NCBI GenBank assembly: GCA_023267045.1
Contig: JAHFOB010000002.1
Span: 2,032 to 66,031 of the forward strand
From: Candidatus Zambryskiibacteriota bacterium
GTDB taxonomy: Bacteria; Patescibacteriota; Minisyncoccia; Phycocordibacterales; DATDWN01
Direction of reading: 5' to 3'
Length of the DNA: 64,000 nucleotides
Made by a program: the position numbers and the translations under genes. Below the pieces are notes generated by a model. It saw nothing but the letters and a program-made list of their open reading frames with translations, did no database searches and had not been told where the DNA came from. Shown one piece after another: positions 14,729 through 63,641 of this stretch (position 1 is the stretch's first letter; each line of letters begins with the position of its first letter).

Positions 14729-15592
14729 ATGACAAAATTTGAATTTGAGGCTATTGGGACTTCGTGGGTAATAGATATAGACAAAGATCTCTCGGATAAA
14801 GAGAAGGAAAATCTTTTGCTAAAAATAAAAGATAGAATAGATATTTTTGATATCGCATATTCGCGGTTCCGCGAAGATTCGCTTGTAACAAAAATGTCAA
14901 AAGAAGCGGGGGAATTTACTTTGCCGGATGATGCGGACAAAATGATTTCGCTTTATAAAAAAATGTATGACGTAACAGGTGGTTTGGTTACGCCACTTAT
15001 TGGTGATGTTTTGTCTGATGCTGGTTATGACGCAGACTATTCTCTTCAGCCGAAATCATTAAAAAAACCAAAAAGTTGGGATGAAGTTATAAAATGGCAA
15101 AACCCAAAACTAAAATTAAATTATCCGACGATTTTGGATTTTGGTGCAGGTGGTAAGGGTTATTTGGTAGATATTGTCTCTGAAATATTGGAAGAAAATG
15201 GAATAGATTCGTATTGTGTGGATGCCAGTGGTGACATGAAACGTAGAGGTCAAGAGGGATTACGTGTTGGTTTAGAACATCCAGAAGAGACAAATAAAGT
15301 TATTGGGGTTGTTACAATTTCAAATCAAAGTTTGTGTGGTTCTGCAGGCAATCGTCGAAAATGGGCCGATTTTCATCACATTATAAATCCAAAAACTCTT
15401 TCTTCACCAAAAAATATTTTGGCAGTTTGGATAGTTGCTGAAAACACATTACTCGCTGATCTTTTAACCACAGGATTATTTTTTGTCGAGCCGGAAATTT
15501 TGAAAAAACATTTTAATTTTGAATACATTATTTTGAAAAATGATTATTCTATAGAGAAATCAGGTGGATTAGAAGTGGAATTATTTACGTAA
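14729..15592 (+). CDS. apbE: FAD:protein FMN transferase (ApbE family)
   Basis: TGGLVTPLIGD...ILDFGAGGKGYLVD...CGSAGNRRKW...HIINPKT are ApbE signature regions. Confidence 0.8.
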   Translation: MTKFEFEAIGTSWVIDIDKDLSDKEKENLLLKIKDRIDIFDIAYSRFREDSLVTKMSKEAGEFTLPDDADKMISLYKKMYDVTGGLVTPLIGDVLSDAGYDADYSLQPKSLKKPKSWDEVIKWQNPKLKLNYPTILDFGAGGKGYLVDIVSEILEENGIDSYCVDASGDMKRRGQEGLRVGLEHPEETNKVIGVVTISNQSLCGSAGNRRKWADFHHIINPKTLSSPKNILAVWIVAENTLLADLLTTGLFFVEPEILKKHFNFEYIILKNDYSIEKSGGLEVELFT

Positions 15593-15611
15593 GAAAGTGG
15601 TAATATATAGG

Positions 15612-15720
15612 ATGAATCCCGTTAGAAATATCGGAGATTCAGTGTTACCACGGTCAGGTTAACTTTAATCATTAACATAAGGAGTTATTATTAAATATAT
15701 GATCTCCTATTTCTAACGGG
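15612..15720 (+). repeat. L-element copy 1: ~107-nt terminal-inverted-repeat element abutting the start codon of 15721
   Basis: ATGA|ATCCCGTTAGAAATATCGGAGAT...ATCTCCTATTTCTAACGGG|ATGAAG; -10-like TAATATATAG immediately upstream. Confidence 0.85.
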
Positions 15721-17253
15721 ATGAAGTTCATAGATAATTTTCTAAACGGCATAACCATGTACAAATTGGTTTTGTACGGACTTTTGGTTTTGGCCGTGTT
15801 TTCTATAGCTCTAAGTTTTGCAGGAATTTTATCGTACAGTCCTCAAAGTTTGTCCAGTTCTTTTATTATTTTGTTAATAGTTTGTTACATAACAAACTAT
15901 CTTTTTTCCAAAGTATTTAGAGTTTCTGTAAATAGTGAATCATATTTCATAACCAGTCTGATATTGTTTTTGATATTGTTTCCTGTAGGTAGTTTATCTC
16001 AACTATGGGTTTCTATTATTGTTGCCACTATAGCAATGGCTTCAAAATATCTTTTGGCAATAAATCAAAAGCATATTTTCAATCCTACCGCTATCGCAAT
16101 TTTTATCATTGGTTTTTTCGGTTATGGTTCGGCCATCTGGTGGATTGGTAGTTCCTATATGATTGTGCCAGTTGTCATTCTCGGTTTTCTAGTTATACGC
16201 AAAGTTCGCCGTTTTGCTTTGTTTTCTTCTTTTCTTCTGGCGGGTGTTGCCAGTATTTCTGTCTTTAGTTTATATCACGGTTTCAACCTAGTTGAAGTTT
16301 TGAAACAAACTTTTCTTTCAGGGCCGATACTTTTCTTCGGCAGTATTATGTTGACAGAACCACTAACGACTCCGCCAAGTGTTGGTCTTCAGGTAGCGTA
16401 TGGCGTTTTAGTCGGAATATTTTTTGGTGCAGAGTTTCAATTTGGCCCATTATATTCTTCACCAGCTCTAGCACTACTTATCGGTAATTTGTTTTCATAT
16501 ATTGTTAGTCCAAGAGCTCATTTAACATTGACTCTGCTTCGCAAAAATAAACTATCCCATGACGTCTATGACTTTGAGTGGAAAATATCTGGTCATAAAA
16601 CAGACAGAAAAATTGGCTTTATGGCGGGTCAGTATATGGAATGGACATTAGCTCACAAACATCCAGATATAAGAGGCAATCGGCGATTTTTTACTCTAGC
16701 TTCCTCTCCGACAGAAGAAAACTTACATCTTGGTATAAAGTTCTACAAAGACTCTAGTAGCTTCAAAAAAGCTCTAAATTCCATGGCTTTGGGTAGTAAA
16801 ATCGTGGCATCGCAAATAGCTGGGTCATTTACACTACCAAAAGACTCAAGCAAGAAGATGGTTTTTATTGCTGGTGGTATAGGTATTACACCGTTCAGAA
16901 GTATTATCAAATATCTGCTCGATAAAAAAGAGGATAGGGAGGCTGTACTTTTCTTTTCAAACAAAACAACAGAAGATATAGTTTACAAAGATATTTTTGA
17001 CGAAGCAGAAAATAAACTTGGGATAAAAACTATTTATGTCATAAACGATATGCAAGGCGGTGTTGAAACTTCAAAAATAAAAGCTGGAATTGTTACAAAA
17101 GAAATGATCGTAGCTGAAGCAACGGATTATAAAGATAGAATTTTCTATATTTCTGGTTCGCACGCGATGGTTGAATCTTTCAAAAACGTTTTACACAAAA
17201 TGGGTGTAAAAAGATCCCAAATCAAAACCGATTTTTTTCCGGGCTTTATGTAG
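15721..17253 (+). CDS. membrane oxidoreductase: polytopic N-terminal domain fused to a ferredoxin-NADP-reductase-type FAD/NAD(P)-binding domain
   Basis: C-terminal RRFFTLASSP (RxYS-type FAD motif), GGIGITPF (NAD-binding) and YISGSHAMV. N-terminal ~280 aa has 8-9 TM helices, with HIFNPTAIA reminiscent of NqrB/RnfD. Confidence 0.6.
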   Translation: MKFIDNFLNGITMYKLVLYGLLVLAVFSIALSFAGILSYSPQSLSSSFIILLIVCYITNYLFSKVFRVSVNSESYFITSLILFLILFPVGSLSQLWVSIIVATIAMASKYLLAINQKHIFNPTAIAIFIIGFFGYGSAIWWIGSSYMIVPVVILGFLVIRKVRRFALFSSFLLAGVASISVFSLYHGFNLVEVLKQTFLSGPILFFGSIMLTEPLTTPPSVGLQVAYGVLVGIFFGAEFQFGPLYSSPALALLIGNLFSYIVSPRAHLTLTLLRKNKLSHDVYDFEWKISGHKTDRKIGFMAGQYMEWTLAHKHPDIRGNRRFFTLASSPTEENLHLGIKFYKDSSSFKKALNSMALGSKIVASQIAGSFTLPKDSSKKMVFIAGGIGITPFRSIIKYLLDKKEDREAVLFFSNKTTEDIVYKDIFDEAENKLGIKTIYVINDMQGGVETSKIKAGIVTKEMIVAEATDYKDRIFYISGSHAMVESFKNVLHKMGVKRSQIKTDFFPGFM

Positions 17254-22597: not shown

Positions 22598-23626
22598 ATG
22601 GATAAAGATTTACTTCAAAAATATTTCTTCGTTGGACTTCTACTTATAGTTTCAGTATTGGTTGGTTTCATTTTTCTTCCTTTTCTGAGTATTTTAGTCT
22701 TATCTTCAATTTTTGGTGTGATTTTAACCCCTCTTCATATAAAAATATCAAAATTTTTTGGTGGCAGAAAAGGTATATCGGCTTTTATTGTAGTTTTGCT
22801 TTTTTGTATAGTTGTTATAATTCCAATGTTTTTCATTTTTATGCAGGTTTTGGGTGAATCAAAAGATCTTTACAGTCAATTGGCAAATCACGATAGTATT
22901 GGATATATACAAAAAATAACTCTAGCCATAGAAAAACCGATACAAAAAATTTATCCGACATTTTCTATAGACCTGAACCAATTCGCCAGTTTTGGGGCAA
23001 ATTGGATTGCTCTGCACTTGAGTTCTATATTATCTAGTGCACTTTCAGTTCTTACCAGCATTGTTTTTATATTTATCTCACTATTCTTTTTCCTTAAAGA
23101 TGGTAGCAAGTTTAAAAAAATGCTAGTTAGCCTTTCGCCACTTCAAGATAAATACGACGAACAAATTTTTGATAAGCTTAAGCAAACAATTACATCCACA
23201 GTACGCGGGGTTTTGCTCGTAGCTATTATTCAAGGAGTTTTGGCTGGTCTAGGGCTTAAAATATTTCACGTTCCACAAGCAATACTGTGGGGGTGTATTG
23301 CTGCCGTAGCATCTGTTATACCTTTCGGCACACTTTCCGTTTATCTACTTTCTATCGCATATATGTATATAACGGGCAATATTCCGTACACTATAGGACT
23401 TGTTTTGTGGACAACTGTTGTTATAGGTCTTGTTGATAATTTTCTTGGTCCATATCTATATTCCAGGGGAGTTGAAATCCATCAACTTGTAATGCTTTTT
23501 GCTATTCTTGGTGGGCTTATAGTTTTTGGCCCGGTAGGATTTATTTTTGGCCCTATTGTTCTGTCTTTGTTTTTTACACTTATAAACATCTATCAGGGTG
23601 TCATTTTGAAAAAAACTTTGTTATAA
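22598..23626 (+). CDS. AI-2E family transporter (UPF0118/PerM-like)
   Basis: About 340 aa, 7-8 TM helices, typical size and topology. The 3' end overlaps the -10 box of the next transcription unit. Confidence 0.55.
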   Translation: MDKDLLQKYFFVGLLLIVSVLVGFIFLPFLSILVLSSIFGVILTPLHIKISKFFGGRKGISAFIVVLLFCIVVIIPMFFIFMQVLGESKDLYSQLANHDSIGYIQKITLAIEKPIQKIYPTFSIDLNQFASFGANWIALHLSSILSSALSVLTSIVFIFISLFFFLKDGSKFKKMLVSLSPLQDKYDEQIFDKLKQTITSTVRGVLLVAIIQGVLAGLGLKIFHVPQAILWGCIAAVASVIPFGTLSVYLLSIAYMYITGNIPYTIGLVLWTTVVIGLVDNFLGPYLYSRGVEIHQLVMLFAILGGLIVFGPVGFIFGPIVLSLFFTLINIYQGVILKKTLL

Positions 23627-23633
23627 TGAGACC

Positions 23634-23740
23634 ATGAATCCCGTTAGAGATTTCAGTTTATTGAAAATTCTTCGGGTAAAATAACATTATTAAATAATTT
23701 GTATATTCAGTAGTTAAAAGCTACTGGTATCTCTAACGGG
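23634..23740 (+). repeat. L-element copy 2 (divergent core) abutting the start codon of 23741
   Basis: ATGA|ATCCCGTTAGAGAT...ATCTCTAACGGG|ATGAAA; TATAAT box at 23622-23627. Confidence 0.8.
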
Positions 23741-24244
23741 ATGAAAACTCCAAAAATATTTGAATCAATTTATCAATTCTTGTTTTCTAATGTAAAGTTT
23801 TCTGTTTTCTGGTTAGTTGTTAGAATTTATTTAGGATGGGAGTGGTTACATGCGGGGTATGAAAAAGTTATAAATCCTATGTGGGTTGGTAAAACTGCGG
23901 GGGGAGCATTAACAGGTTTTATAAATGGCGCTTTAGCAAAAACCGCAGGAGCTCATCCTGATGTGTCTATGTGGTACGCTTGGTTTTTGAAGCACGCAGT
24001 TTTAACATACGTCGTTACTTGGTCAAATTTGGTAGCGTATGGTGAACTTCTTGTTGGTATTGGACTTATTTTGGGTGCTCTAACTTTCCTATCTGCATTT
24101 TTCGGATTCTTTATGAATTTGAATTATCTTTTAGCTGGTACTGTTAGTACGAACCCAGTCCTCTTAATTTTAGCCATTCTTATAATGCTTGCTCACAAAA
24201 CAGCAGGGTATATTGGACTTGATCGCTGGCTTGTTAAGAGTTAG
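23741..24244 (+). CDS. DoxX family membrane protein
   Basis: Four TM helices, RIYLGWEWLHAGYEK..., DoxX-like size and pattern. Confidence 0.55.
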   Translation: MKTPKIFESIYQFLFSNVKFSVFWLVVRIYLGWEWLHAGYEKVINPMWVGKTAGGALTGFINGALAKTAGAHPDVSMWYAWFLKHAVLTYVVTWSNLVAYGELLVGIGLILGALTFLSAFFGFFMNLNYLLAGTVSTNPVLLILAILIMLAHKTAGYIGLDRWLVKS

Positions 24245-30755: not shown

Positions 30756-30814
30756 GTTTCTGAGCATTTTCTATAAATAGCAACGATAATATACTTTATG
30801 TTACAATAGCCCTC

Positions 30815-30921
30815 ATGGATCCCGTTAGAAATATCGGAGATCAATGTTACGATTATCAGGTTAATTTTAATTTTATAATAGGTCGTCATAGCAGAATGTA
30901 TGATCTCCTATTTCTAACGGG
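30815..30921 (+). repeat. L-element copy 3 abutting the start codon of dedA (30922)
   Basis: ATGG|ATCCCGTTAGAAATATCGGAGAT...ATCTCCTATTTCTAACGGG|ATGGAT. The duplicated hexamer ATGGAT matches this gene's own start; TACAAT box lies upstream. Confidence 0.85.
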
Positions 30922-31539
30922 ATGGATTATTTGATAAATAGCATAACTATACTTGGATATTTTGGCTATGGGCTTTTATTTATAATCATATTTTTTGAGT
31001 CTTTTCCACTAACATTTTTCTTGCCAGGAGACAGTTTGCTTTTTACATCTGGGTTTCTGGCTTCACAAGGGCACTTCAATCTTGCTCTACTTATCGCCAC
31101 ACTTTTTCTAGCAAGTATCGCCGGCTATCTTTTCAGCTATGCAATGGGGGAGAAACTTCGACAAATTATTTTGAAAAGTAACGACAAGTATTGGTTCAAA
31201 AAAAAGCACTTGGACTACACAGAAAAATTTTATGCAAAGTACGGCACAAAAACAGTAATTATCGGTCGCTTTGTTCCCATAGTCCGTTCTTTTAGTCCGA
31301 CATTGGCTGGAGCTGTAGATATGAACTTCAAAAAATTTCTAAAACTGACTATGCTTGGCGGATTTCTCTGGACGGTAGGAATAACTTCTGCCGGTTTTTA
31401 TTTGGGTAAAGCTATTCCTAGCGCTCATTTATATTTAACACCGATAATTCTCGGTATTATTTTTGTGTCACTTTTGCCAGCAATCATAGAATATATTCGT
31501 GATCAGGTTGCCAAAGGTAAAATAAATCCAAAAGTATAA
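30922..31539 (+). CDS. DedA family membrane protein
   Basis: LPGDSLLF...GRFVPIVRSFSPTLAG, DedA/SNARE-associated pattern. Confidence 0.8.
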   Translation: MDYLINSITILGYFGYGLLFIIIFFESFPLTFFLPGDSLLFTSGFLASQGHFNLALLIATLFLASIAGYLFSYAMGEKLRQIILKSNDKYWFKKKHLDYTEKFYAKYGTKTVIIGRFVPIVRSFSPTLAGAVDMNFKKFLKLTMLGGFLWTVGITSAGFYLGKAIPSAHLYLTPIILGIIFVSLLPAIIEYIRDQVAKGKINPKV

Positions 31540-34158: not shown

Positions 34159-34239
34159 GTCGGCACCTCTAGGCTAAAATTACTCTTATTTATAAAGTTG
34201 TCAATTTACAAATCGTCACAAAAATAATATAATTACGTC

Positions 34240-34346
34240 ATGAGTCCCGTTAGAAATAGCGGAGATCAATATTACCAGAGTCAGATAAGTTTAATAATTA
34301 AATAAGGAGTAATAGTTTTATACTAGATCTCCTATTTCTAAACGGG
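34240..34346 (+). repeat. L-element copy 4 abutting the start codon of the FKBP gene (34347)
   Basis: ATGA|GTCCCGTTAGAAATAGCGGAGAT...AGATCTCCTATTTCTAAACGGG|ATGAAA; TTTACA-17-TATAAT promoter directly upstream. Confidence 0.85.
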
Positions 34347-34802
34347 ATGAAAACATTAGATACAAATGAGTGGATAGCTGTCATAGTTTCTGTTTTTGTT
34401 GTTGGTTTCTTTTTTATATTTGGCCAAAGTCTTATTTCCTTATTTAATAACAGTAATTCAAAAAGTATGGTCACTACTCCACAAGTTATTTCAACAGATA
34501 CGGTTATAGGTGCAGGTCAAACGGCAACAGATGGCGATCGTGTAGTGGTTCATTACACCGGACATTTTGTTGATGGCAAAGTTTTTGATAGTTCTGTCAC
34601 TCGTGGCGAGCCATTTCAATTTGTCTTGGGCAGAGGACAAGTTATAAAAGGTTGGGATGAGGGTATAGTCGGTATGCGAGTTGGTGGCAAAAGAACTCTC
34701 TCAATCCCACCAGAACTTGGCTATGGGGCAAATGACTACGGACCGATTCCTGGCAGATCGACGCTTATCTTTGATGTTGAGTTATTGAAAGTGGAAAAAT
34801 AG
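34347..34802 (+). CDS. FKBP-type peptidyl-prolyl cis-trans isomerase, membrane-anchored
   Basis: N-terminal TM; VVVHYTGHFVDGKVFDSS...FQFVLGRGQVIKGWDEG..GM.VGG.R.L.IPPELGYG is the FKBP domain. Confidence 0.9.
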   Translation: MKTLDTNEWIAVIVSVFVVGFFFIFGQSLISLFNNSNSKSMVTTPQVISTDTVIGAGQTATDGDRVVVHYTGHFVDGKVFDSSVTRGEPFQFVLGRGQVIKGWDEGIVGMRVGGKRTLSIPPELGYGANDYGPIPGRSTLIFDVELLKVEK

Positions 34803-46176: not shown

Positions 46177-46192
46177 CTGTCTACTGTTTCTG

Positions 46193-46265
46193 TGGACCCT
46201 GCCGGATTCGGACCGGCGACCTCCGCATTGCAAATGCGGCGCTCTACCAACTAAGCTAAGGGCCC
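46193..46265 (-). tRNA. tRNA-Ala (anticodon UGC), intact, carried inside the island
   Basis: Reverse complement reads GGGCCCTTAGCTTAGTTGGTAGAGCGCCGCATTTGCAATGCGGAGGTCGCCGGTCCGAATCCGGCAGGGTCCA. G3:U70 acceptor pair; anticodon stem CCGCA/TGCGG with loop TTTGCAA. Confidence 0.85.
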
Positions 46266-58010: not shown

Positions 58011-58373
58011 GCGTCAGTGGAAGACAGAGTCATGTTTTTATACCAATAAAAACGGACGAGTCAGGGTCGTGGAAATTTTGTTTTGACGAAAATAAAATTA
58101 TTCCTGACCACAAAATGTATTAGGAAAATAGTGGCTGACCCCATTTTCCCTGACCCCATTTTCCCCATCTTCTAAATAAATCATTGCTATGGTATTGTTT
58201 TGTTACAACTAAATAAGTTAAAGTAGCCTAAACCAAGTAATTGGCATGGTGAAAAGCCCAGTAACGAATAAAAAACCCATCATGCGGGCTTGTCGTTACT
58301 GGCCATATCGGGAAACCGGTATGGGGAGCTTCGGCTCCCACCCTGTGGTGGGCTTTTTGTATAAATAAAAAAT

Positions 58374-62739: not shown

Positions 62740-63534
62740 TTAATAATACTTATCAATATTTTTCAAATGACCTTCGTATGTTGCTGAACAATGAATATTT
62801 CCTTTTTTGTCGTGAAGGTAGAAAAGACAGTTTGTTTTTTGAGGATTGTAAGCGGCGTCGATAGCTGCTAGACCTGGATTGGCGATAGGAGTCGGTGGAA
62901 GTCCAACATGCAGATATGTATTGTAGAGTGAGTTTATGCTTTTGTCTTTTGGATAAACTTTTGACCACCAACCATCTTCTTCTGAACCTTTGGCGTATTG
63001 CAGCGTGGCGTCTATTTGTAGTTTCATACCGTTGAAAAGGCGATTCCAAATAATTCCGGAAATTAATTTCATATCATTTTTTCCGCCGGCTTCACGCTGG
63101 ATGATGGAGGCGATAGTCAGAGCTGTTTCTGGGTTGATTATTTTTGCCGTTTTTGGTTTTTTAATTGCGGATGTTTGTGTGCTGAACTGGTGAAGCATTA
63201 TACTGGTTACTCCAAGCGGGTTTTCATCTTTCAGTAAAATATAAGTTTTTGGAAAATATTTTCCTTCCAAGTCGTCTGTGTTCAGTGCTAAATGTGCATT
63301 TATAAACTGGCTTTTTTCTGAATCACCCCAACCTAGTTTACTTCCAACAAGATCAGCGATCTCTTCTTTACGCAGTCCCTCTCTGACTTGAACTATACGA
63401 GCGTCTGGGTTGGCCAAACTCTGGTAGAAAGAAAGGTCAGCCAACAGAGAAAAATCTAACCTATAGTGATACATCATTCCCAAAAGAGTTCCGAAAGATA
63501 AAACAAAGAGTGTAGCAATGTATCTTAACTTCAT
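62740..63534 (-). CDS. mltG: endolytic murein transglycosylase MltG/YceG family
   Basis: N-terminal TM; YceG-like domain pattern (NTYLHVGLPPTPIANPGLAAIDAA). Confidence 0.8.
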   Translation of the reverse strand: MKLRYIATLFVLSFGTLLGMMYHYRLDFSLLADLSFYQSLANPDARIVQVREGLRKEEIADLVGSKLGWGDSEKSQFINAHLALNTDDLEGKYFPKTYILLKDENPLGVTSIMLHQFSTQTSAIKKPKTAKIINPETALTIASIIQREAGGKNDMKLISGIIWNRLFNGMKLQIDATLQYAKGSEEDGWWSKVYPKDKSINSLYNTYLHVGLPPTPIANPGLAAIDAAYNPQKTNCLFYLHDKKGNIHCSATYEGHLKNIDKYY

Positions 63535-63641
63535 CCCGTTAGAAGTACCAGTAATTTGAATATTAAAGGTATAAAAATTAACTTAATTTTTAAATTATTC
63601 TCAAAAGAAGATTTTCGACTGAAACTTCTAACGGGATTCAT
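63535..63641 (-). repeat. L-element copy 5 (minus-strand orientation, divergent core) abutting the start codon of mltG
   Basis: The minus strand reads ATGA|ATCCCGTTAGAAGT...ACTTCTAACGGG|ATGAAG; a -10-like TATGATATAG lies upstream. Confidence 0.8.

Follow-up and report, generated by a model that had tools for sequence, protein, structure and literature searches.

In this study, we report that an inverted-repeat sequence found five times in the window (the whole 64-kb stretch of DNA analysed) is very probably a non-coding, non-autonomous mobile element of the MITE kind, ~80-135 bp long, which integrates at the start-codon motif ATG-R-A and rebuilds the ATG. The element is a selfish insertion and not a regulatory switch for membrane-protein genes, and its targets are the start codons of leaderless or tightly coupled genes. 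On integration into ATG-R-A, the G of the start codon and the following base are duplicated; as the element ends in AT, a new ATG comes to stand directly before the intact coding sequence. The original ATG stays at the 5' edge of the element with its native promoter, SD or stop/start overlap. Genome-specific subfamilies multiply within genomes, and the same gene starts are struck repeatedly.

If this reading is correct, no mobile element with the start codon itself as its niche would have been described before, and a transposon would have found a new way to survive in tiny, ~90%-coding genomes that offer hardly any safe intergenic space. That the termini are identical across phyla would point to a recombination activity shared widely among organisms regarded as poor in mobile elements. 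Gene calling in Patescibacteria would be affected, as callers can choose wrong starts, and many genes of this group would, on indirect evidence, be leaderless or independent of an SD. The copies would also provide a natural experiment on re-initiation and hairpin-masked start codons at essential genes, and their presence or absence could be used as a fine-scale strain marker.

Structure and position of the element in the window

The initial annotation had described five copies of an inverted-repeat element wedged between a promoter and a gene. All five were found at the positions given there, and the element is genuine: each copy has the form ATG-N followed by ATCCCGTTAGA, ~85 nt, TCTAACGGGAT and G, and a long hairpin is predicted for every copy (-28 to -37 kcal/mol, z = -3.7 to -4.5). 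The copies, here called c1 to c5, and their surroundings are as follows.

15598..15615, + strand: TGgTAATAT extended -10-like box of c1 (15598-15606), 5 nt, original start ATGA (15612-15615), read from the sequence
15616..15722, + strand: c1 element, 107 nt, ATCCCGTTAGA...TCTAACGGGAT; working start codon 15721-15723
15721..17253, + strand: c1 host, 510-aa membrane FNR/RnfD-like oxidoreductase
23598..23637, + strand: promoter-like GTGTCA-18-TATAAT with TG of c2 (23598-23627), 6 nt, original start ATGA (23634-23637)
23638..23742, + strand: c2 element, 105 nt, second subfamily; new ATG 23741-23743
23741..24244, + strand: c2 host, DoxD/DoxX-like protein, 167 aa
30799..30818, + strand: TGtTACAAT extended -10 of c3 (30799-30807), 7 nt, original start ATGG (30815-30818)
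30819..30923, + strand: c3 element, 105 nt; new ATG 30922-30924
30922..31539, + strand: c3 host, DedA/VTT-domain protein, 205 aa
34205..34243, + strand: promoter-like TTTACA-17-TATAAT of c4 (34205-34233), 6 nt, original start ATGA (34240-34243)
34244..34348, + strand: c4 element, 105 nt, variant termini; new ATG 34347-34349
34347..34802, + strand: c4 host, FKBP-type peptidyl-prolyl isomerase with hydrophobic N-terminus, 151 aa
63638..63656, - strand: TGaTATAGT extended -10 of c5 (63656-63648), 6 nt, original start ATGA (63641-63638)
63533..63637, - strand: c5 element, 105 nt, second subfamily; new ATG 63534-63532
62740..63534, - strand: c5 host, YceG/MltG-like protein, 264 aa

The ATG after the 3' arm had been taken as the start of the host gene, and in all five copies the downstream ORF has no earlier start than this second ATG; the AT at the end of the element and the duplicated G together form the working ATG. 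The first ATG, which had been counted as part of the element, is present in each copy but is the host's original start codon, duplicated on insertion. Every copy has a -10-like hexamer, also noted in the initial annotation, 5-7 nt ahead of its first ATG. In c2 and c4 it falls within a full promoter-like match, that of c4 (11/12) being the best in a 19-kb scan, and TGn-extended -10 boxes can be read before c1, c3 and c5. Transcription very likely starts at or next to the first ATG, as had been proposed, given that empty orthologous sites show leaderless-type promoters of the form TGnTACAAT-N7-ATG. It had correctly been remarked that SD is lacking directly before the real ATG; AAGGAG, said to be frequent in the core, does occur there, but in two of the five copies. 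SD-like motifs are scarce in the window genome, where they precede ~10 of 62 genes. The start of the c1 host gene is called 23 codons downstream in one assembly.

Two subfamilies are present in the window, c1/c3/c4 and c2/c5. Copy c4 is a variant with GTCCCG and TCTAAACGGG; its termini, GTCCCG... and ...TCTAAACGGGAT, carry one substitution and one extra A. In the window, exact matches to the nine-mer CCCGTTAGA are confined to element arms, and TCTAACGGGATG with up to 2 mismatches has 13 matches against 3.3 expected, a number reached by none of 100 shuffles; the window contains no further copies beyond the five. Shuffle controls exclude chance, the same contig region appears in independent assemblies and more than 130 copies lie in independent genomes, which leaves chance similarity or an assembly artefact with a negligible probability.

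Among the window copies and in the family alike, the core varies while the stems keep their sequence. Family members are 82-135 nt long and non-coding; their reading frames are short, and only the arms impose any conservation on them. A helical module of 14 bp, a bulged U and 7 bp, about two helical turns in all, is conserved. The 3' arm ends in ...UAACGGGAUGA, and the element carries stop codons in two frames next to the rebuilt start codon. No outward promoter or IHF site is evident in the element.

Distribution across genomes

Scanning of species-representative genomes yielded at least 120 loci. The element was found with identical 11-nt termini, invariant by design of the search, in at least 120 other genomes, almost all of them Patescibacteria. 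Among the loci listed, ~109 belong to CPR/Patescibacteria and the rest to Omnitrophota, Sedimentisphaerales/Planctomycetes and WOR-3. One copy was found among viral contigs, on a phage-like contig and at a gene start. For a MITE family, it is unusual that 11-bp termini are identical in different phyla.

Tabulation of copies by their position relative to start codons, as suggested in the initial annotation, gave the arrangement ATG-N / element / G-N in 102 of 134 copies. N was identical on both sides in 96 of the 102 and was followed by A in 99, with no other flank conservation seen. Three copies have GTG upstream and ATG downstream; therefore, the downstream AT is supplied by the element. The canonical N-terminus begins at the downstream ATG in GlyRS, PheT (5 copies), AlaS, GyrA, DnaN, TopA, SSB (3 copies), ClpP (2 copies), ribosomal proteins L9, L18, L29, L35 and L36, and others. 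The copies are dispersed at syntenic housekeeping genes with a strong orientation bias, and none was seen inside a coding region.

Across the family, the -10 hexamer peaks 6-7 nt upstream of the upstream ATG. TAnnnT lies 5-8 nt before this ATG in 34 of the 102 copies and an SD-like motif precedes it in 16; the stop of the upstream gene overlaps it in 15, and the end of the upstream gene is at most 25 nt away in 27. Apart from promoter-like A/T signals, nothing before the old ATG is conserved, and on the downstream side conservation stops at +5.

Empty sites, target duplication and mobility

The corresponding gene starts of related genomes are mostly empty: the element is absent from 17 of 18 DedA and 22 of 23 FKBP orthologues (including L122 and L123). 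The DedA empty site in a relative reads TGTTACAAT-N7-ATGGATTATTT, and in L122 the c3 promoter and ATGGATTATTT are contiguous at the empty orthologous site, so that the DedA start runs uninterrupted (ATGTTACAATAGCCACC ATGGATTATTTAAT), compared with ATGTTACAATAGCCCTC ATGG-element-ATGGATTATTTGAT in the window. This identifies the element as an insertion into the start codon. Checked against the empty sites, the target duplication consists of the G of the start codon and the next base N. Conversely, the start of the neighbouring helicase gene is occupied in L127, L137 and L164 and empty in the window, and that of XseA is occupied in L137 only.

Within a genome, copies share a subfamily (the window groups, L127, L137, L054 and L059), and tandem copies are found in L011, L052 and L095. 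Density is uneven: the window has 5 copies in 64 kb, and 614 kb sampled without bias from relatives have 10, of which 7 have diverged termini; L070 is a relic with the 3' arm alone. The element thus shows the features by which a MITE is recognised: it is small and non-coding, has terminal inverted repeats, a target-site duplication against an empty site and several copies per genome, and its occupancy of DedA, FKBP, helicase and XseA forms a mosaic among relatives.

The initial annotation had leaned towards a dedicated leader or riboswitch for membrane genes, and all five window hosts are indeed membrane or envelope proteins. This does not extend to the family, in which the hosts of 126 oriented copies are arbitrary housekeeping genes, including those for tRNA synthetases and ribosomal proteins, and 41 of 115 hosts (36%) have a predicted membrane-spanning (TM-like) segment against a background of 38.6%. 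A cis-regulatory RNA leader of a membrane/envelope regulon, riboswitch-like or protein-binding, would fit an element that is transcribed from +1, folds stably and has termini conserved across phyla. Already largely refuted, it is very improbable: a variable core with conserved stems is the opposite of what a ligand-binding RNA shows, the element has a target-site duplication and tandem copies, and most DedA and FKBP orthologues do without it. Classification as a riboswitch or structured cis-regulatory leader was rejected in view of the variable core with sequence-conserved stems, the unrelated hosts, the orthologues without the element and the absence of an Rfam match even at E<=10.

A search of ~950 kb of loci for an autonomous parent with a transposase or recombinase found none, and no long-range arm pairs or ORF-flanking solo arms; the viral contigs likewise yielded no transposase, recombinase or parent copy, and no abutted-ends junction. 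Candidate solo arms and distant arm pairs proved to be degenerate copies, relics, a mini-hairpin or chance. The window contains 603 ATGNA sites, ~82 of them non-coding; the ATG-R-A motif alone is therefore insufficient to explain the start-codon specificity, which may come from selection or from a targeting mechanism. An IS200/IS605-like 'guide' setting N was rejected, as c1 (ATGA) and c3 (ATGG) belong to the same subfamily and genome and are each matched on both sides.

Pairing of the stems

The initial annotation had called for a test of arm covariation across genomes, and the stems do covary: pairing extends to 96.8% of cells, both partners have changed in 10 pairs, and none of 500 shuffles matches the observed values. 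Stem positions 12-14, which lie outside the search selection, are Watson-Crick in 353 of 378 cells, with covariation. The P2 helix is long-range in some copies and a local hairpin in others. Because the stems covary in two topologies, transposition probably proceeds via a folded single strand.

Strand tests for an RNA hairpin, in which P2 was selected by Watson-Crick pairs only, gave G·U against A·C mismatches of 11 vs 11 and 17 vs 20, and no asymmetry was found for stem positions 12-14 or P2. An apparent excess in other counts was traced to how the pairs had been selected and to positions 1-2 being constrained by the start codon. The near equality of G·U and A·C thus gives no sign of selection on a sense RNA hairpin in resident copies, and pairing seems to matter for propagation and not in resident copies.

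Compensatory changes even turn the new ATG into GTG in L043 and L168. Such costly changes would suit a domesticated element, in which a trans factor acting on the 11-bp helix exerts global translational control and the copies are maintained by host-level selection, as would the exact termini in at least 120 genomes across phyla and the occupation of the same genes in distant genomes (PheT 5, SSB 3 and ClpP 2 times). Against domestication, most relatives lack the element at the same genes, diverged termini prevail in the unbiased sample, the stem mismatches look neutral and 3'-arm-only relics exist; we consider it quite unlikely.

Expression of the host genes

Read in the frame of the upstream ATG, 36 of 102 copies have no stop codon within the variable core, against 10 and 7 for the other two sense frames, and the excess persists after clustering of related copies (26.2 vs 7.3 and 6.0). 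The upstream frame terminates at the arm UAA in 22 copies and at a UGA overlapping the new ATG in 11; c5 in the window has such an open frame, closed by the TGA that overlaps the new ATG. These open frames ending at 3'-arm stops suggest a relay from the old to the new start codon, and expression of the host by ribosomes passing from the old AUG to the new one is plausible, if slightly on the doubtful side. The mRNA arms would pair and bury the new AUG; ribosomes that had loaded at the old AUG would enter the element, melting the stem as they translate, and would then terminate at the UAA 4 nt before the new AUG, or at the UGA of AUGA, and re-initiate, or else the new AUG would simply be exposed for another ribosome. 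Host translation would be kept under the original initiation signals, and the insertion would therefore be nearly harmless.

An early stop in the core ends 65 of the 102 upstream frames, which counts against a universal relay; with early stops in most copies, simple termination-reinitiation cannot be the general route. In-frame fusion of the upstream frame to the host occurs in 1-2 of 102 copies, and the inter-ATG offset modulo 3 is 41/38/23 across copies. Loss of the upstream ATG amounts to ~4% per site; it is retained no better than the apparently neutral stem positions 12-14, and thus its presence may reflect the mere youth of the copies.

The early stops also favour a variant in which the insertion is as described and the element is removed or skipped in the RNA, by bypass, precise excision or hairpin trimming. 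Trimming by RNase III-like cleavage would give a leaderless or short-leader mRNA, as for the Correia elements of Neisseria, which are bound and cleaved by RNase III (PMC2649163). The matched AUG-N on both sides would be juxtaposed by the hairpin base, and the 14 bp-bulged U-7 bp helix has the size of an RNase III substrate. Yet the excess of open upstream frames ending at arm stops argues for read-in and not hopping, no stop or 'hungry' codon follows the take-off AUG, and no copy was seen within coding regions, although these would tolerate an insert that is generally bypassed or spliced out. Removal or skipping in the RNA is on balance unlikely.

Insertion with a ribosome relay can also be extended to a start-codon-homing transposon, a possibility which we advance tentatively and regard as rather doubtful. 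Here, the machinery would select ATG-R-A starts across phyla, possibly through a conserved or host-encoded recombinase acting on a folded single strand, and the UAA-CGGG-AUG-A arm would be an evolved device for ribosome hand-over. If this were true, dozens of essential genes per genome would depend on the translation of a parasitic leader.

Comparison with known systems

The initial annotation knew of no described equivalent, and none emerged here. Literature searches by sequence and by topic (Patescibacteria leaderless genes, MITEs, start codons, translational coupling) found no description, and a 2024 MITE review mentions neither start codons nor Patescibacteria. At gathering thresholds, Rfam returned LOOT RNA and two tRNAs for the whole window, all away from the element; at E<=10, the c1 region (15400-15900) gave chance miRNA-like matches only. 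A group I/II intron or known ribozyme was rejected, as the Rfam models gave chance matches only.

Bypassing, as in T4 gene 60 and the byp elements of Magnusiomyces mitochondria, involves a short, possibly mobile hairpin insert with identical take-off and landing codons. The present element likewise has AUG-N on both sides at the hairpin base; it differs in occurring at initiation codons only, never internally, in having no stop or unreadable codon after the upstream AUG, and in frame statistics that indicate read-in and not hopping.

The attC sites, IS200/IS605-derived palindromes and REPINs are folded single-strand recombination substrates. The present element resembles these substrates in that a short conserved sequence forms the base of a long imperfect hairpin, in its strong orientation bias, and in stems that covary, contain bulged bases and end in a variable loop of 3-80 nt. 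In contrast to attC, the order of the GTT/AAC boxes is reversed and there are no cassette arrays; an integron attC was rejected because the order is GTTAGA...TCTAAC where 5'-RYYYAAC...GTTRRRY-3' is required, and the copies are dispersed and not arrayed by intI. HUH/Y1 enzymes (the single-strand-DNA transposases of IS200/IS605) are not known to make a target duplication, whereas the present element has a real duplication of target bases. Unlike REP/REPIN sequences, it is without a GTAG-type head and is not located at gene 3' ends.

Among mobile elements, the Correia repeat-enclosed elements (CREE) of Neisseria are MITE-like, non-coding and ~100-150 bp long, with terminal inverted repeats and a TA 2-bp duplication; they are present in many copies per genome with presence/absence polymorphism, and are often co-transcribed with the downstream gene as an expression-affecting hairpin (PMC2649163, PMC10969869). 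The present element is also small, inverted-repeat, multicopy and polymorphic, with a 2-bp duplication, but has no sequence similarity to CREE. It targets the start codon ATG-R-A whereas CREE target intergenic TA, it rebuilds the start codon with adjacent stops in two frames, and it is superphylum-wide where CREE are found in one genus. It was not classed as a Correia element, which has a 26-bp TIR, a TA duplication and an IHF site; termini, target and taxa all differ.

The Rickettsia palindromic elements (RPE) are selfish palindromes inserted in such a way that the host gene stays functional (PMC10969869), and the present element escapes counter-selection in the same manner. RPE, however, lie in frame inside ORFs and are translated within the protein, whereas the present element is not a multiple of 3 nt, is stop-rich and lies before the coding sequence. 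An RPE-type in-frame insertion was rejected in view of the offsets (41/38/23), with merely 1-2 of 102 copies open in frame.

In natural coupled gene pairs, adjacent or overlapping stops and starts (ATGA, TAA-N-ATG) allow termination-reinitiation (PMC6728339). The open upstream frames of the element similarly stop 4 nt before the new AUG or overlap it; they differ in that the upstream 'gene' is a meaningless frame of 5-40 codons on a mobile element, and that about one third of the copies keep this frame open.

The element copies in the window

All five copies were found exactly at the positions given in the initial annotation, whose observation was confirmed as a whole, and Pfam agreed with the host genes it had named. 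A search across the window for a sixth copy found none. The copies, designated c1 to c5, are as follows:

15612-15720 (+), c1, before an FNR/RnfD-like gene
23634-23740 (+), c2, before a DoxD/DoxX-like gene
30815-30921 (+), c3, before a DedA gene
34240-34346 (+), c4, before an FKBP gene
63535-63641 (-), c5, before a YceG/MltG-like gene

The window copies share the layout ATG-N, ATCCCGTTAGA, a variable stretch of ~83-85 nt, TCTAACGGGAT and G, and their arm sequences occur far above chance expectation; c4 departs from this layout by GTCCCG and by an additional A in TCTAAACGGG. Alignment sorted the copies into two subfamilies, one of c1, c3 and c4 and the other of c2 and c5. A long hairpin is the predicted fold of each (-28 to -37 kcal/mol, z about -4), and in 5/5 a long ORF has its first start codon in the ATG formed at the 3' edge. 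The -10-like hexamer reported before the first ATG was also present in 5/5, 5-7 nt upstream. In c2 and c4 it lies within a full promoter-like match, the c4 site ranking first in a 19-kb scan; as a class, promoter-like matches in that scan were not above shuffled expectation, so the scan on its own proves little.

The one-base insertion in the 3' arm (TCTAAACGGG) is common to c4 (34330-34346) and to two loci from other genomes, L127:~9960 and L083:~7860, in different subfamilies, and in 3/3 cases it precedes a gene starting with ATGAAAA (two FKBP, one FtsH-like). In a different assembly of this organism (sample ERZ27297709), the c1 host protein was called automatically from a start 23 codons downstream (487 vs 510 aa), with the same spacing, which may be an example of the element disturbing start prediction.

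Distribution of the family

The family was scanned for as ATCCCGTTAGA-N70-100-TCTAACGGGAT in one genome per species, which gave at least 120 loci. Among these listed loci, ~109 were from Patescibacteria of many classes (Paceibacteria, Saccharibacteria, Kaiser-, Nomura-, Moran-, Levy-, Kerfeldbacteria and others), and the remainder from Omnitrophota, Sedimentisphaerales/Planctomycetes, WOR-3 and two MAGs labelled Gammaproteobacteria. The 11-bp termini were kept across phyla. The window itself forms part of a 78.8-kb metagenome contig. The nearest proteins to its XseA were of Paceibacteria/Zambryskibacteria type, and the following RNA genes were located:

2900-2971, tRNA-Gln
46192-46265, tRNA-Ala
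58225-58339 (+), full-length LOOT RNA (RF03000; 80.7 bits, gathering score 46.4), a marker consistent with CPR origin

A sub-lineage carrying 5' GTCCCG and usually 3' TCTAATGGGAT, with two G·U pairs in the sense strand, comprised L005:3852, L009:7172, L081:568, L127:3510, L134:7230 and L034:4811. These copies have CTTG or CCTG where others have ATG-N, and so lack an upstream ATG, TTG or CTG being possible. In a Planctomycetaceae MAG, a 47-nt mini-hairpin with both arms and a short loop (CCCGTTAGAAATGCC...GGAATTCCATTTCTAACGGGG) lies directly after the stop codon of a gene (L067:7077-7124); it may have arisen by collapse of a copy and act as a terminator-like hairpin.

Insertion into the start codon

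Flanks were analysed in 134 copies, from the scanned loci and the window. ATG-N directly before and G-N directly after the element was found in 102/134, of which 96 had the same N on both sides. N was mostly A (79 copies), less often G (18-19) and rarely C or T. The base downstream of N was A in 99/102, and the rest of both flanks was without conservation. Variants included ATG directly abutting the element, ATGCA...GCA, and GTG upstream with ATG downstream (three copies). On the simplest parse, ATCCCG...CGGGAT is the element, G+N is duplicated on integration, and the AT at the element's end restores the ATG. Within one subfamily c1 has ATGA and c3 ATGG, so the duplicated bases come from the target. 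If abutted, the ends (TCTAACGGGAT-GN-ATCCCGTTAGA) would make a perfect palindrome around a 2-bp core, with AT-GN-A common to the target; a recombinase or a transposase with a 2-bp staggered cut would fit equally.

Well-known proteins have their authentic N-terminus at the downstream ATG, among them GlyRS, PheT (five genomes), AlaS, GyrA, DnaN, TopA, SSB (three), ClpP (two), DnaJ, Frr, Adk, TPI, PGK, MurG and ribosomal proteins L9, L18, L29, L35 and L36. The association with start codons extended to other genomes, and ~85-90% of copies lie at starts. That the hosts encode membrane proteins as a rule was not borne out: a predicted membrane-spanning (TM-like) segment occurred in 41/115 hosts vs 38.6% of background ORFs from the same loci, and the 5/5 membrane hosts of the window are therefore a local coincidence. 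The interpretation first given was partly supported.

The window contains 603 ATGNA sites, ~39 at ORF starts and ~82 non-coding. The few copies away from starts (L012, L050, L086) all belong to non-Patescibacteria and lie in ATAAA with duplication of AA. Specificity for start codons may arise from selection, real targeting or both. At L047:2700-2880, a diverged copy lies in an ATGA shared by the adenylate kinase stop and the start of the next gene (methionine aminopeptidase-like), indicating that the element also enters translationally coupled operon junctions.

Empty sites and mobility

Relatives were fetched through XseA, which is located between the c3 and c4 host genes.

Table. Occupancy of gene starts in the window and its relatives
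Gene start; window; relatives
DedA; occupied (c3); 17/18 empty, L127 occupied
FKBP; occupied (c4); 22/23 empty, L127 occupied
DEAD helicase; empty; occupied in L127, L137 and L164
XseA; empty; occupied in L137 only

At the DedA start, L122 reads ATGTTACAATAGCCACC-ATGGATTATTTAAT, compared with ATGTTACAATAGCCCTC-ATGG[element]ATGGATTATTTGAT in the window. The empty DedA orthologues have TGnTACAAT-N7-ATG in common, conserved in ~17 related genomes, and empty FKBP orthologues have TATAAT/TATACT-N5-7-ATGAAAA. Each genome carries one subfamily, and copies at the same site in different genomes belong to different subfamilies, which points to independent hits or to turnover at preferred sites. Also seen were tandem copies linked by a shared ATGA (L011, L052, L095) and relics, such as L070 with the 3' arm only. 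An unbiased XseA-based sample (80 loci, 614 kb) held 10 copies in 8 loci, 7/10 with 1-2 substitutions per arm; set against 5 per 64 kb in the window, the element load is very uneven between genomes. Empty sites, subfamilies, tandems, relics and uneven load are the behaviour of a mobile, non-autonomous element.

The initial annotation was aware of no described riboswitch, leader or MITE of this arrangement. No Rfam family matched the element and a literature search found no description of it. Its kind is known, that of the bacterial MITE, with Correia elements and Rickettsia palindromic elements as the closest functional analogues. No description was found of its target and design, namely insertion into the start codon, its regeneration, and built-in stops for coupling.

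Origin of the upstream ATG

The upstream ATG is the original start codon of the host gene with its original signals; the initial annotation had taken it as part of the element. Hexamers resembling a -10 box peak 6-7 nt before the upstream ATG, the arrangement of leaderless genes, and TAnnnT occurs 5-8 nt before it in 34/102 copies. An SD-like motif stands at the proper distance in 16/102, and the stop of the upstream gene overlaps the ATG in 15/102 and falls within 25 nt in a further 27. The window genome is itself SD-poor (SD-like motif before ~10/62 genes), and a -10 box abuts the ATG in ~12 window genes. Across all window gene starts and the DedA, FKBP and XseA starts of L122-L205, many genes have a -10 box of the TGn-extended type at 5-8 nt from the ATG. 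Together with the SD-poverty and the conserved DedA promoter arrangement, this offers strong comparative evidence for leaderless mRNAs in Paceibacteria.

Conservation of folding

Stem positions 12-14, beyond the fixed 11 bp, were Watson-Crick paired in 353/378 cells, with four pair types. They are followed by an asymmetric internal loop (5' NNC, 3' U) and a 7-bp helix, P2, which takes two topologies: long-range, with its 5' strand adjoining the 5' arm, or a local hairpin adjoining the 3' arm. The stems covary: in 34 long-range copies, chosen by P2 pairing and not by covariation, 96.8% was paired and double changes occurred at 10 pairs, values matched by 0/500 shuffles. Complementarity kept despite sequence change, in two topologies, indicates that the folded single strand, DNA or RNA, matters. 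Stem mismatches of A·C and G·U were equally frequent (11 vs 11, and 17 vs 20), and therefore gave no sign of purifying selection on a sense RNA hairpin in resident copies. We infer that folding is needed at propagation of the element.

The asymmetric interior has the same orientation relative to the host gene in ~69 copies vs ~9, so that either the element integrates directionally or this orientation is the better tolerated one. A sense-strand (A/G)CGGGA(T) occurs in about a third of cores, within their 5' half and 20-40 nt from the 5' end (GGGA in 42 copies vs TCCC in 7), as in L109, L003 and L101; c2 has CGGGT at ~23673. This motif is complementary to the 5' arm, with which it could pair as an alternative 5' hairpin freeing the new AUG, or it could be a remnant of composite, nested or tandem copies.

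Translation of the host gene

The reported absence of an SD before the real ATG holds for the new AUG in Patescibacteria versions, where its A and U are predicted to be paired within a -30 kcal/mol stem. Of the three frames of the conserved 3' arm, UCUAACGGGAUGA, one has a UAA that ends 4 nt ahead of the AUG, another a UGA that overlaps it, and the last the AUG itself. Read in the frame of the upstream ATG, the variable core was stop-free in 36/102 copies, vs 10 and 7 for the other sense frames and 7-19 for antisense frames; with related copies down-weighted (68 clusters), the values were 26.2 vs 7.3 and 6.0. Open upstream frames end at UAA in 22 copies and UGA in 11, and hardly any (1-2 copies) run on in frame into the host protein. 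The encoded leader peptides had no conservation beyond the arm-imposed MNPVR...

From the open-frame excess and the endings at the arm stops, a relay is proposed in which ribosomes would initiate at the old AUG, read in, unzip the stem and be handed to the new AUG by termination-reinitiation; such behaviour of coupled stop/start pairs is known (PMC6728339). In the 65/102 copies with an early-stopping frame, ribosomes would merely expose the new AUG. We hold this relay tentatively, as a reading of sequence patterns that falls a little short of probable. The upstream ATG is retained no better than neutral stem positions, so its retention is not usable as evidence for the relay.

In Planctomycetes/Omnitrophota versions and one phage copy, GGAGG lies in the 3' arm, 9-12 nt before the new AUG, and the element thus supplies whichever initiation signal its hosts use. 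Arms in these non-Patescibacteria copies are AGACCTCC/GGAGGTCT, or have AAGGAGG, the 3' arm giving the SD and the 5' arm masking it; they were found in L053, L065, L066, L071, L076 and L067 (Planctomycetes/Omnitrophota) and in L125:3734-3829 (viral contig).

Within the c1/c3 subfamily, a mini-frame ATGATCTCCTATTTCTAA (M-I-S-Y-F-stop) lies in the 3' stem of c1 (15700-15717), c3 (30901-30918) and the L137 copies, terminating at the UAA of the arm. A conserved TAAGGAGT, too distant for a normal SD, is located ~17 nt upstream of the mini-frame in c1, c4 and both L137 copies.
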